The position numbers and the translations under genes are program-made. Positions 7,447-14,659 of a stretch of 64,000 bases of DNA are shown here, one piece after another. The stretch's first letter is position 1; the number at the start of each line of letters is the position of its first letter. The stretch is from Escherichia coli. Lineage in GTDB: Bacteria > Pseudomonadota > Gammaproteobacteria > Enterobacterales > Enterobacteriaceae. The notes beneath the pieces are model-generated. The model ran no database searches. It had not been told where the DNA came from and worked only from the letters and a program-made list of their open reading frames with translations. The stretch lies in NCBI RefSeq assembly GCF_016026235.1, contig NZ_CP065613.1; one strand, given 5' to 3'.

Positions 7447-7887
7447 GATACCCTTCAAACCAAATCTACCTTCACCCCGTCAAAGATGGGTTTGGCAGCA
7501 CATTTGCCTTATATCTACTCATTTTTACTGCAACAGGTTGAAATCTCAGCACTGTCAGAAAGTGCTGATGACTAAACAGCCCTGGGCCGGGCGATGTAAC
7601 CATCACACAGAATCCTGATAGCGAAATATGGCGTGACTCGATACTTCACTCCGCAATGCATTCCTTGATGAATTCGCAGGCCCGTGATACACGGGAAAGG
7701 TCGCTGAATGACGACAATGTCCTGGAAATCAGCGAACCGTGTATCCGGAGTACATTTGAGCGACTGTACCAGAACATGAATGAGGTGTTTGGATTAGGCG
7801 ATTATTAGCAGGGCTAAGCATTTTACTATTATTATTTTCCGGTTGAGGGATATGGAGATATCGACAACAACCGGAAAAAGTTTACGT

Positions 7888-9135
7888 CTATATTGCTGAA
7901 GGTACAGGCGTTTCCATAACTATTTGCTCGCGTTTTTTACTCAGGAAGAAAATGCCAAATAGCAACATCAGGCAGACAATACCCGAAATTGCGAAGAAAA
8001 CTGTCTGGTAGCCTGCGTGGTCAAAGAGTATCCCAGTCGGCGTTGAAAGCAGCACAATCCCAAGCGAACTGGCAATTTGAAAACCAATCAGAAAGATCGT
8101 CGACGACAGGCGCTTATCAAAGTTTGCCACGCTGTATTTGAAGACGGATATGACACAAAGTGGAACCTCAATGGCATGTAACAGCTTCACTAATGAAATA
8201 ATCCAGGGGTTAACAAACAGCGCGCAGGAAAGGATACGCAACGCCATAATCACAACACCGATAAGTAATGCATTTTTTGGCCCTACCCGATTCACAAAGA
8301 AAGGAATAATCGCCATGCACAGCGCTTCGAGTACCACCTGGAATGAGTTGAGATAACCATACAGGCGCGTTCCTACATCGTGTGATTCGAATAAACCTGC
8401 ATAAAAGACAGGAAAAAGTTGTTGATCAAAAATGTTATAGAAAGACCACGTCCCAACAATAAATATGACGAAAACCCAGAAGTTTCGATCCTTGAAAACT
8501 GCGATAAAATCCTCTTTTTTTACCCCTCCCGCATCCGCCGCTACGCACTGGTGATTCTTATCTTTAAAACACATGTTGATCATCATAAATACAGCGCCAA
8601 ATAGCGAGACCAACCAGAAGTTGATATGGGGACTGATACTAAAAAATATGCCGGCAAAGAACGCGCCAATAGCATAGCCAAAAGATCCCCAGGCGCGCGC
8701 TGTTCCATATTCGAAATGAAAATTTCGCGCCATTTTTTCGGTGAAGCTGTCAAGCAAACCGCATCCCGCCAGATACCCCAGGCAAAAAAAGAGCGCCCCC
8801 AGAATTAGACCTACAGAAAAATTGCTTTGCAGTAATGGTTCATAAACGTAAATCATAAACGGTCCGGTCAAGACCTGGATGAAACTCATACACCAGATGA
8901 GCGGTTTCTTCAGACCGAGTTTATCCTGAACGATGCCGTAGAACATCATAAATAGAATGCTGGTAAACTGGTTGACCGAATAAAGTGTACCTAATTCCGT
9001 CCCTGTCAACCCTAGATGTCCTTTCAGCCAAATAGCGTATAACGACCACCACAGCGACCAGGAAATAAAAAAGAGAAATGAGTAACTGGATGCAAAACGA
9101 TAGTACGCATTTCTGAATGGAATATTCAGTGCCAT
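7888..9135 (-). CDS. cscB: CscB sucrose:H+ symporter (MFS, LacY-like)
   Basis: 415-aa ORF MALNIPFRNAYYRFASSYSFLFFISWSLWWSLYAIWLKGHLGL... Confidence 0.95.
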   Translation of the reverse strand: MALNIPFRNAYYRFASSYSFLFFISWSLWWSLYAIWLKGHLGLTGTELGTLYSVNQFTSILFMMFYGIVQDKLGLKKPLIWCMSFIQVLTGPFMIYVYEPLLQSNFSVGLILGALFFCLGYLAGCGLLDSFTEKMARNFHFEYGTARAWGSFGYAIGAFFAGIFFSISPHINFWLVSLFGAVFMMINMCFKDKNHQCVAADAGGVKKEDFIAVFKDRNFWVFVIFIVGTWSFYNIFDQQLFPVFYAGLFESHDVGTRLYGYLNSFQVVLEALCMAIIPFFVNRVGPKNALLIGVVIMALRILSCALFVNPWIISLVKLLHAIEVPLCVISVFKYSVANFDKRLSSTIFLIGFQIASSLGIVLLSTPTGILFDHAGYQTVFFAISGIVCLMLLFGIFFLSKKREQIVMETPVPSAI

Positions 9136-9206
9136 AATTACCTGCCTGTCGTTAAAAAATTCACGTCCTATTTAGAGATAAGAGCGACTTCGCCGTTTAC
9201 TTCTCA

Positions 9207-10117
9207 CTATTCCAGTTCTTGTCGACATGGCAGCGCTGTCATTGCCCCTTTCGCCGTTACTGCAAGCGCTCCGCAACGTTGAGCGAGATCGATAATTCGT
9301 CGCATTTCTCTCTCATCTGTAGATAATCCCGTAGAGGACAGACCTGTGAGTAACCCGGCAACGAACGCATCTCCCGCCCCCGTGCTATCGACACAATCCA
9401 CAGACATTCCAGCAAAATGGTGAACTTGTCCTCGATAACAGACCACCACCCCTTCTGCACCTTTAGTCACCAACAGCATGGCGATCTCATACTCTTTTGC
9501 CAGGGCGCATATATCCCGATCGTTCTGTGTTTTTCCACTGATAAGTCGCCATTCTTCTTCCGAGAGCTTGACGACATCCGCCAGTTGTAGCGCCTGCCGC
9601 AAACACAAGCGGAGCAAATGCTCGTCTTGCCATAGATCTTCACGAATATTGGGATCGAAGCTGACAAAACCTCCGGCATGCCGGATCGCCGTCATCGCAG
9701 TAAATGCGCTGGTACGCGAAGGCTCGGCAGACAACGCAATTGAACAGAGATGTAACCATTCGCCATGTCGCCAGCAGGGCAAGTCTGTCGTCTCTAAAAA
9801 AAGATCGGCACTGGGGCGAACCATAAACGTAAATGAACGTTCCCCTTGATCGTTCAGATCGACAAGCACCGTGGATGTCCGGTGCCATTCATCTTGCTTC
9901 AGATACGTGATATCGACTCCCTCAGTTAGCAGAGTTCTTTGCATTAACGCACCAAAAGGATCATCACCGACCCGACCTATAAACCCACTTATTCCGCCTA
10001 ATCTGGCGATTCCCACCGCAACGTTAGCTGGCGCGCCGCCAGGACAAGGCAGTAGGCGCCCGTCTGATTCTGGCAAGAGATCTACTACCGCATCCCCTAA
10101 AACCCATACTTTGGCTG
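9207..10117 (-). pseudogene. cscK: CscK fructokinase, 5'-truncated: body lacks its ATG and first five codons, which lie on the far side of IS4
   Basis: Frame reads ...AKVWVLGDAVVDLLPESDGRLLPCPGGAPANVAVG... to ...CRQELE*; original ATG-TCA (M-S) sits at 11554-11559 beyond the IS4 right end. Confidence 0.85.
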
Positions 10118-13207: not shown

Positions 13208-13214
13208 CATAATA

Positions 13215-14210
13215 TCAGGTGGAACAACGGATCAACAGCGGGCAAGGGATCCGCGTCACACTTCCCCCTTCACGACCTTCAATAATATGCAATGCAGCTT
13301 CCCGCCCGATAATGTCATGTGGAAGCTGAATTGTGGTCAGCGGCGGTAAAAACAGATGCCCGACACCAACCAGATTATCAAAGCCCATTACGGCGACATC
13401 CTGCGGGATACGTACCCCCTTCGCCAGGAGAACCTGATAAGCCACAAAGGCTGCGCGATCGTTACCACATATCAGAACATCAAAATCTGGTTTGCCCGAT
13501 TTGAAGTGGTCATTGAGTAAACTTGCGAGATCGGTGTAGTGATCATCACCTGTTGCCATGTGAAATTGTTTCACCTCAGCCAGATCTCGTCCAGCATCAC
13601 GCCAGGCCTGCTCAAATCCCTGCCGACGATACCCCGTTGCCAACGCACTTTCCGGTAGCCAGAAGCATAACGGTTGACGATAGCCCGCCGCGAGCAAATG
13701 CTGTGTTGATTCATATTGTGCAGTGTAATCATCAGGGATATAACTGGGTAACGCTGGGTCATCCGCCACACAGTTAGCCAATACAATATTTTCACCATAC
13801 AGAGACTCAGGTAGCGTGATATGTCGCAGCCCCATTGTAGTATAGATAATGCCATCCGGACGGTGGGCAAGCAGCTGACGTGCCGCGCGGGCAGCGTCAT
13901 CTTCAGAAAAAATATTGATTAAAAAACTATTCCAGCCGAACTCGCTGGCGGTTTGCTCAATGGCAAGCAGAATATCAACAGAGAAAGGAGTGGTAGCCGT
14001 GTCCTGCGCCAGCACGGCGAGAGTCGACGGCTTACGTCCTTGAGCGCGCATCTTACGGGCGGAAAGATCAGGAACATAATTCAGGGTCTGGATTGCCTGC
14101 AATACGCGGTCACGCGTTGCAGGACGCACAGATTCTGCATTATGCATCACCCGGGAGACTGTCATCATCGACACTCCCGCCAGGCGTGCGACATCCTTTA
14201 ATGAAGCCAT
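13215..14210 (-). CDS. cscR: CscR sucrose operon repressor (LacI family), 331 aa
   Basis: ORF trimmed to MASLKDVARLAGVSMMTVSRVMHN... (N-terminal HTH of LacI type). Confidence 0.9.
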   Translation of the reverse strand: MASLKDVARLAGVSMMTVSRVMHNAESVRPATRDRVLQAIQTLNYVPDLSARKMRAQGRKPSTLAVLAQDTATTPFSVDILLAIEQTASEFGWNSFLINIFSEDDAARAARQLLAHRPDGIIYTTMGLRHITLPESLYGENIVLANCVADDPALPSYIPDDYTAQYESTQHLLAAGYRQPLCFWLPESALATGYRRQGFEQAWRDAGRDLAEVKQFHMATGDDHYTDLASLLNDHFKSGKPDFDVLICGNDRAAFVAYQVLLAKGVRIPQDVAVMGFDNLVGVGHLFLPPLTTIQLPHDIIGREAALHIIEGREGGSVTRIPCPLLIRCST

Positions 14211-14440
14211 ATCCAAGCCGTTTGCCGTAAAACGGGCACTGTAGCAGAAACAGACGTCACTGGCGAGATCCAACGCCCTATCACCTGTCACGGCAATACA
14301 ATAAAAAATAACAATAATTGCCGAATAATTGTACCCAATTCCGCCTCTGTTCTCGCCAACGAGTAACCATATAGGCAAGTAAGTAAAACATGCCAACTGG
14401 CATCGCCAACCTGGAGAAGAAAATATAAATATGGATCATT

Positions 14441-14659
14441 GTGCTGCCGCTGTATCCCGACATCAGCCCGGAAATTATTGCGATTGCTATCGGTTCAGGT
14501 GCAATTGGCTGCACGATCGTTACGGACTCGCTTTTCTGGCTGGTGAAACAATATTGCGGCGCTACGCTCAATGAAACATTTAAATACTATACGACAGCGA
14601 CATTTATCGCTTCAGTCGTCGCTCTGGCGGGCACATTCCTGCTGTCATTTATCATCTAA
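14441..14659 (+). pseudogene. dsdX: dsdX remnant: only the C-terminal ~72 codons of the D-serine permease (GntP family)
   Basis: Frame opens right after a stop and reads ...[71 protein letters not shown], immediately upstream of dsdA. Confidence 0.8.

Follow-up and report, generated by a model that had tools for sequence, protein, structure and literature searches.

An IS4-interrupted csc sucrose module in place of dsdC and the 5' part of dsdX at the argW-dsdA locus of Escherichia coli

In Escherichia coli O157:H7, the D-serine locus dsdCXA is truncated, and dsdC together with part of dsdX is substituted by a sucrose locus at a recombination hot-spot (PMC4366372, citing Jahreis 2002 and Moritz & Welch 2006). 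The same replacement of dsdC and dsdX by the sucrose (csc) genes is found in E. coli W (PMC3032704), and the arrangement is published (Jahreis 2002; Moritz & Welch 2006; Connolly 2015; O'Boyle 2020). The csc genes occur in about 35% of the strains of the E. coli reference collection (ECOR), and in the csc loci of Shigella, cscK and cscB are usually interrupted by the insertion sequences IS1, IS3, or IS4, with cscA and cscR intact (PMC11251922). In this study, the region between the tRNA gene argW and the D-serine deaminase gene dsdA was analyzed in a 64-kb stretch of E. coli DNA (contig NZ_CP065613.1; hereafter the window). With high confidence, the locus was identified as the common csc-type allele of the argW-dsdA region, in which an old replacement of dsdC and the 5' part of dsdX was followed by a later insertion of IS4.

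Compared with the csc regulon of the strains EC3132, W, and EDL933 (z3622-cscB-cscK-cscA-cscR-'dsdX-dsdA), the window carried the same genes in the same order and orientation, and it also shared the 441-bp spacer (z3622/DUF4942), the operator palindromes, and the breakpoint at dsdX codon 374. The published consequence, a loss of dsdCX and a silent dsdA, is common to both. The window differed in that its cscK was split by IS4 after codon 5, such that cscK and cscB are probably not expressed. In this respect it resembled the degraded csc loci of Shigella, where cscA and cscR are likewise intact, cscK and cscB are disrupted by insertion sequences that include IS4, and a functional dsd locus is absent, as in the window (PMC11251922). 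With the argW-CPS-53 (KpLE1)-dsdCXA region of K-12, the window shared the backbone of mlaA, yfdC, and argW on one side and the dsdX 3' end, dsdA, emrY, and emrK on the other. Unlike K-12, it lacked the prophage, intS, and attR, and both dsdC and codons 1-373 of dsdX were replaced.

Gene identities were assigned from a map of open reading frames (ORFs) and NCBIfam profile scans, tRNAs were identified with ARAGORN and Rfam, and the argW-dsdA region of MG1655 served as the K-12 reference. Apart from the IS4 insertion, the locus comprised the following features (positions in the window):

7372-7446, plus strand: argW, tRNA-Arg(CCU) (anticodon CCT as DNA), found by ARAGORN and by the Rfam tRNA model (63.4 bits)
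7447-7887, plus strand: spacer of 441 bp with no intact gene (blastx, ORF map)
7888-9135, minus strand: cscB, sucrose:H+ permease of the major facilitator superfamily (MFS), 415 aa, intact (TIGR00882, 586.7 bits, cutoff 220)
9207-10117, minus strand: body of cscK from mid-codon 2 to the stop, split from its ATG and promoter by IS4
9207-10076, minus strand: cscK-like fructokinase ORF, 289 aa (NF006957, 471 bits, model positions 15-302)
11560-11773, no strand: divergent cscK-cscA regulatory region, 214 bp, intact and still joined to cscA
11774-13207, plus strand: cscA, GH32 sucrose hydrolase (invertase), 477 aa, intact (TIGR01322, 479 bits; annotated cscA in matching genomes)
13215-14210, minus strand: cscR, LacI-family sucrose operon repressor, 331 aa, intact (LacI-family matches)
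14211-14441, no strand: region upstream of cscR, forming the right end of the island, with the dsdX breakpoint between 14441 and 14442
14442-14659, plus strand: 'dsdX, a 3' remnant of codons 374-445 and the stop (frame 14441-14659), without promoter or the N-terminal 373 residues
14677-16005, plus strand: dsdA, D-serine ammonia-lyase, 442 aa, intact, without DsdC or the dsdX promoter (TIGR02035, 811.5 bits)

The initial annotation, made from the sequence of the window, had proposed a whole-locus alignment against K-12, and the alignment (blastn) placed both breakpoints where it had predicted them. On the left, homology to K-12 extended to 7446, the last base of argW, and the left boundary of the island thus coincided with the argW 3' end. 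On the right, homology restarted at 14442, corresponding to nucleotide 1121 (codon 374) of dsdX, and positions 14442-16200 were collinear with K-12 through dsdA at 99.1% nucleotide identity. Across this right breakpoint (marked by a slash), K-12 reads ...GCACCCA/TGCTGCCGCTG and the window reads ...GATCATTG/TGCTGCCGCTG. The gene order in K-12 is argW, the CPS-53 prophage with intS, the 15-bp attR copy pawZ, dsdC, dsdX, dsdA, and emrY, and that in the window is argW, the spacer, cscB, cscK, cscA, cscR, 'dsdX (codons 374-445), and dsdA. The outer neighbors were those of K-12, with mlaA and yfdC on the argW side and emrY and emrK beyond dsdA.

Neither blastn nor tblastn found a match within the 64 kb for the K-12 intS, dsdC, nucleotides 1-1120 of dsdX, or the whole of CPS-53; the sole exception was a weak LysR-family match at 58852-59031, which belongs to an unrelated gene. 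Hence, the earlier statements that no integrase or prophage directly follows the tRNA-Arg(CCU) gene, and that dsdC and the 5' end of dsdX are missing, both held, and the refuting condition named there, dsdC and a complete dsdX elsewhere at the locus, did not arise within the window. Every ORF of 7447-14441 was accounted for, and the Rfam scan of the whole window returned seven tRNAs only, none of them in the spacer or the island.

The remnant at the right end was readily assigned to dsdX. The frame 14441-14659 matched the DsdX model NF007395 at positions 374-445 of 445 (E=1.6e-42) and was 98.6% identical to residues 374-445 of K-12 DsdX, in agreement with its initial description as the last ~72 residues of a dsdX-like GntP-family permease followed by an intact dsdA. 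Of the parts of the dsdCXA locus, DsdA was complete, DsdX was represented only by residues 374-445, and DsdC had no match at the locus. A 219-bp partial dsdX pseudogene was annotated by the Prokaryotic Genome Annotation Pipeline (PGAP) in six of six retrieved csc loci, labeled as 'D-serine transporter DsdX' in two and as 'GntT/GntP/DsdX family permease' in four. The same frame could also be read as a small gene in its own right or as an ORF arisen by chance, given its GTG start and the absence of interruptions, but the GTG is created by the junction itself, and the model match, the protein identity, the nucleotide collinearity, and the pseudogene calls in six genomes all speak against this interpretation. 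The alignment with K-12 dsdX-dsdA ruled it out, and its probability is negligible.

The distribution of the arrangement was surveyed among 5426 complete E. coli genomes. A query spanning 7300-16100 (8.8 kb) was covered to at least 80%, i.e., all but the IS4, in 2623 of these genomes, the spacer being present in the same number. A 140-bp probe over the breakpoint between the cscR upstream region and dsdX matched in full in 2528 genomes (about 47%), and the other genomes among the matches listed carried the dsdX half only (probe positions 71-140, window 14442-14511). The island flanks were 97-100% identical to those of thousands of genomes. The nearest complete genome in the set was FDAARGOS_943 (99.9-100%), and the cscB-cscK segment (7888-10117) of six retrieved loci was 0-4.1% diverged from the window. 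The simplest reading of these alignments is a single ancestral replacement, passed on to about half of the species. A 5.56-kb segment carrying a DUF4942 gene remnant, cscB, cscK, cscA, and cscR would have replaced about 2.4 kb of dsdCXA-type sequence, from just after argW through dsdC to nucleotide 1120 of dsdX, in the ancestor of much of E. coli. The resulting csc-type allele would then have spread by descent and homologous recombination.

It was also considered whether a mobile island had brought csc into this strain recently and independently, by integrating site-specifically at argW. The left boundary at the argW 3' end, which is the attachment core of phages and islands, would be expected under such a scenario, and the remnant of a mobile-island gene (DUF4942) adjoins this boundary. 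However, a tRNA-anchored integrative island would carry a tRNA-adjacent integrase and an attR direct repeat, and beyond the tRNA 3' boundary the window showed neither. No intS-like match occurred in the interval or elsewhere in the window. A partial direct repeat of the argW 3' end, for which the initial annotation had suggested a search, was not found either: with 17 nt and up to three mismatches allowed, the only copy in the window was argW itself, and an attR-type repeat was absent among the repeats listed for 7300-14800. In addition, the right breakpoint lies inside dsdX and not at an attachment site, and the identical breakpoint in 2528 genomes, including loci of up to 4% divergence, points to an old shared event. 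A recent integration is thus highly improbable, and the ancestral replacement is preferred.

The spacer provided some insight into the origin of the incoming segment. The initial annotation had noted about 440 bp of non-coding or remnant DNA after argW, and the interval indeed measured 441 bp and contained no intact gene. At ~7513-7799 lies a fragment from the interior of a DUF4942 (yeeW-like) gene, decayed by stop codons and a frameshift. In a blastx comparison with a full-length homologue, the fragment shared 52% identity over 79 aa with in-frame stops, followed by a second piece in another frame, and the pieces jointly covered residues ~38-151 of 281. The 50-aa ORF at 7656-7808 had no NCBIfam match, so its DUF4942 origin was established by blastx. 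The spacer corresponds to z3622 of EDL933 (gene name from PMC7486766). In an avian pathogenic E. coli (APEC) genome, a CP4-type island with Ag43, antirestriction, YeeU/CbtA, DUF5983, and DUF957 genes ends with the full-length DUF4942 homologue, a gene typically carried at the end of such islands.

In strain RMDEC465 (NZ_CM177019), argW is followed by a CPS-53-like remnant ('intS ... torI), then by a second copy of the attachment (att) core, and directly after it by the same spacer, the start of which is thereby shown to coincide with the att core. In csc-type strains, the spacer therefore forms the chromosomal flank of the attachment site at argW, and this site is empty in the window. The degraded prophage of RMDEC465 occupies 509-4014 of the retrieved locus, ahead of the DUF4942 remnant and csc, and includes torI, a PACE efflux gene, a LysR regulator, and a partial intS; the cscA of this strain was frameshifted. 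RMDEC465 shows that whether a prophage occupies argW and whether csc has replaced dsdCX are independent of each other, both at the same hot-spot. The GC content was 0.43-0.45 over cscB, about 0.49-0.52 in yfdC and dsdA, and about 0.50 in the remaining island. Plausibly, the csc segment arrived as cargo of a larger island integrated at argW, both sides of which were subsequently shortened by deletions, since the left boundary is exact to the tRNA and a mobile-island gene remnant has been retained.

Of the features of the csc regulon, the permease CscB, the hydrolase CscA divergent from cscK, CscR with two palindromes, and the location between argW and a truncated dsdX were all present, while an intact cscK with its promoter was not. 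The cscB gene, which follows the broken cscK within one operon, is annotated in matching genomes as cscB or as an oligosaccharide MFS transporter, and the counterpart of cscR in NZ_CM177019 is annotated as 'sucrose operon repressor CscR'. In the region between cscK and cscA, a repeat search identified two AGTTAACGTTAAC palindromes at 11662-11680 and 11724-11742, and a consensus promoter scan identified a promoter-like site at 11672-11699 on the plus strand. According to PMC11251922 (citing Jahreis 2002), a 12-bp inverted repeat occurs twice between cscA and cscK and represents putative CscR operators. The palindromes of the window agree with this description and are likewise considered putative operators. 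The cscA of the window was of the common 477-aa form and lacked, at 13114, the 3-nt ATC insertion found in the otherwise near-identical allele of FDAARGOS_943.

The csc genes of the window had initially been listed as cscB, cscK, cscA, and cscR; these identities and their coordinates were retained, but the genes are not contiguous, as an IS4 inside cscK had been overlooked. The features of the insertion were as follows:

10106-10117 and 11544-11555: 12-bp target duplication ATACTTTGGCTG, direct copies flanking IS4
10118-11543, plus strand: IS4, 1426 bp, complete (sequence, repeats, and alignment to FDAARGOS_943)
10118-10135 and 11526-11543: 18-nt terminal inverted repeats TAATGCCGATCAGTTAAG and CTTAACTGACTGGCATTA, 89% complementary
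10202-11530, plus strand: IS4 transposase, 442 aa, intact, within a 448-codon ORF (NF033592, 303.8 bits)
11544-11559, minus strand: orphaned cscK 5' stub, running from the native ATG (reverse complement of 11557-11559) through codon 5 to the first base of codon 6

The element conformed to the definition of the IS4 family: a length of about 1.4 kb, terminal inverted repeats, a single DDE transposase, and a target duplication of 11-13 bp. It shared with the K-12 IS4 (insG/InsG) the length of 1426 bp, the 442-aa transposase, and the 12-bp duplication, with six nucleotide differences (99.6% identity) and four amino acid differences in the transposase; the genomic location of the two differed. In the alignment to the IS4-free FDAARGOS_943, the break at 10117/11544 was clean, and the two aligned parts overlapped by 12 bp in that genome. 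The insertion point follows codon 5 of cscK, and codons 6-304 were parted from the ATG and the promoter. The junction of this allele reads CCCATACTTTGGCTG/TAATGCCGATCAG. An intact CscK from a retrieved csc locus starts with MSAKVWVLGD, compared with (ATT)I-T-AKVWVLGD for the cscK body of the window, the first bases of which (ATTA) come from the IS4 terminus. A terminator-like hairpin was found on the minus strand just inside the right end of IS4 (11539-11514), and a consensus scan, a weak negative by nature, found no outward minus-strand promoter at the left end. IS4 in this position leaves cscK, and cscB downstream of it, with neither the cscK start codon nor the intergenic promoter, and the sucrose module is probably non-functional in this strain.

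In genomes with the same split, PGAP called cscK as a full coding sequence (CDS), of 915 bp in strains 789, CE0021a, ST866, and RMDEC465 and of 918 bp in JNEC-KY173. The product was named 'aminoimidazole riboside kinase' or 'fructokinase', and one such CDS occupied 4908-5822 of a retrieved locus. When the CDS of strain 789 was read out, its start was an ATT that belongs to the terminal repeat of IS4. Such IS4-broken csc loci would be scored as intact in gene-presence surveys, and functional csc would be overcounted.

A 120-bp probe over the left IS4/cscK junction matched in full in six of the 5426 complete genomes. In the carriers checked, the insertion site, the orientation of IS4, and the 12-bp duplication were identical to those of the window. 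A single origin of the allele, shared by descent or recombination among the carriers, would account for these identities and for the left junction common to all six genomes. It does apply to strains 789, CE0021a, and ST866, which are near-identical in both the flanks and IS4 and so share one event among those three. The cscB-cscK segments of the carriers, however, diverged from the window by 0.85% (789, CE0021a, and ST866), 2.1% (JNEC-KY173), and 4.1% (RMDEC465), yet the IS4-free FDAARGOS_943 was 100% identical to the window over the 2230 bp of the left flank and 99.9% over the right. The IS4 copies did not track this divergence either: RMDEC465, the most diverged in its flanks, carried the most similar IS4, with three mismatches to the window copy, compared with 12 in strain 789.

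IS4 has a strong preference for target sites of the pattern AAA-N20-TTT. The reconstructed empty site in cscK, AAAACCC[ATACTTTGGCTG]ACATTTTTTT, fits this pattern, as does the site occupied by IS4 in K-12, AAATAGGC[ATCTTGGTTCTG]GTGTTT, which also has a 12-bp duplication; this too argues against a single origin. Repeated independent insertion at an IS4 target hot-spot is therefore favored, because the same site was hit on csc backgrounds of 0.85-4.1% divergence while the closest relative is free of IS4, and a single origin, the weaker alternative, appears unlikely on these alignments. A further conjecture, of low probability, is that codon 5 of cscK is a hot-spot at which IS4 repeatedly silences CscK-CscB uptake in unrelated lineages of E. 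coli and Shigella, that precise excision might reverse this silencing, and that its recurrence might reflect selection against Csc in some niches, beyond the target preference of IS4.

A sequence of two events is proposed for the present state of the locus. With the replacement, dsdA would have remained intact, but the transporter, the activator DsdC, and the dsdX promoter that depends on it would have been lost, and D-serine deaminase would be essentially silent. In csc-type strains, the expression of dsdA is low and non-inducible, and D-serine is neither used nor tolerated (PMC4366372; PMC7486766). In enterohaemorrhagic E. coli (EHEC), where dsdA is silent and D-serine is toxic, reactivation has been observed only through spontaneous deletions that fuse dsdA to cscAp or z3622p (PMC7486766). 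In a much later second event, IS4 would have inserted into cscK after codon 5, at a site that fits its target pattern. Neither cscK nor the permease gene cscB behind it would any longer be connected to the start codon and the cscK promoter; cscA, its promoter, the putative operators, and cscR were left untouched. Polarity and the missing promoter and start codon would abolish the expression of cscK and cscB. The locus has probably lost inducible D-serine catabolism as well as sucrose uptake, and the predicted phenotype is sucrose-negative or very slow growth on sucrose and no utilization of D-serine, with cscA and cscR functional.

Several points weigh against this account. Sucrose enters E. 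coli W at a low level through the trehalose phosphotransferase system (PTS) (PMC3938415), and some sucrose could by this route still reach CscA. A weak outward promoter of IS4, or alternative starts at ATT or TTG, could give some CscK and CscB. Neither an integrase nor attR survives, and the dip in GC content over cscB is mild, so an island origin of the csc segment is plausible but unproven. An scr locus or a second copy of dsdCXA outside the 64-kb window would change the phenotype. Second dsdCXA copies have reportedly been found in K1 strains (Moritz & Welch 2006).

Beyond the argW-dsdA locus, two further regions of the window differed in structure from reference genomes. An IS4-like element, named ISEc60 after the annotation of FDAARGOS_943, was present in two inverted copies of 1298 nt (43121-44418 and 51052-52349) that were 100% identical and bounded a 6.6-kb segment with glk, yfeO, mntH, and nupC. 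This block matched FDAARGOS_943 on the strand opposite to that of the remaining window, and it is thus inverted between both genomes; the ISEc60 query had about 40 matching places in FDAARGOS_943. At the position of yfdF (window ~4000-5400), the GC content was low (0.33-0.37), and the longest ORF encoded 224 aa (4459-5133), compared with a 1059-bp gene for K-12 YfdF. In the close relative FDAARGOS_943, the yfdF orthologue contains an internal stop and is annotated as a pseudogene.

Overall, the observation in the initial annotation was partly confirmed and its interpretation was supported, with two corrections: the csc module is broken by IS4, and the replacement is not specific to this strain. 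The view that a sugar module has replaced the regulator and the transporter of the D-serine locus at a tRNA-linked hot-spot agrees with both the K-12 alignment and the published interpretation. The arrangement is ordinary, already published, and annotated in thousands of E. coli genomes, and the feature added at the strain level is the probable IS4 knockout of cscKB, which itself has published precedents. The exchange of dsdCX for csc makes the use of sucrose and that of D-serine mutually exclusive, a relationship that has been published, experimentally tested, and tied to niche specificity, because D-serine represses the type III secretion system encoded by the locus of enterocyte effacement (LEE) in EHEC. 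The carriage of LEE and that of dsdCXA are nearly mutually exclusive (PMC4366372). To this picture, the window adds one case in which IS4 has probably inactivated the acquired sucrose module in turn, matching the decay of csc known in Shigella.

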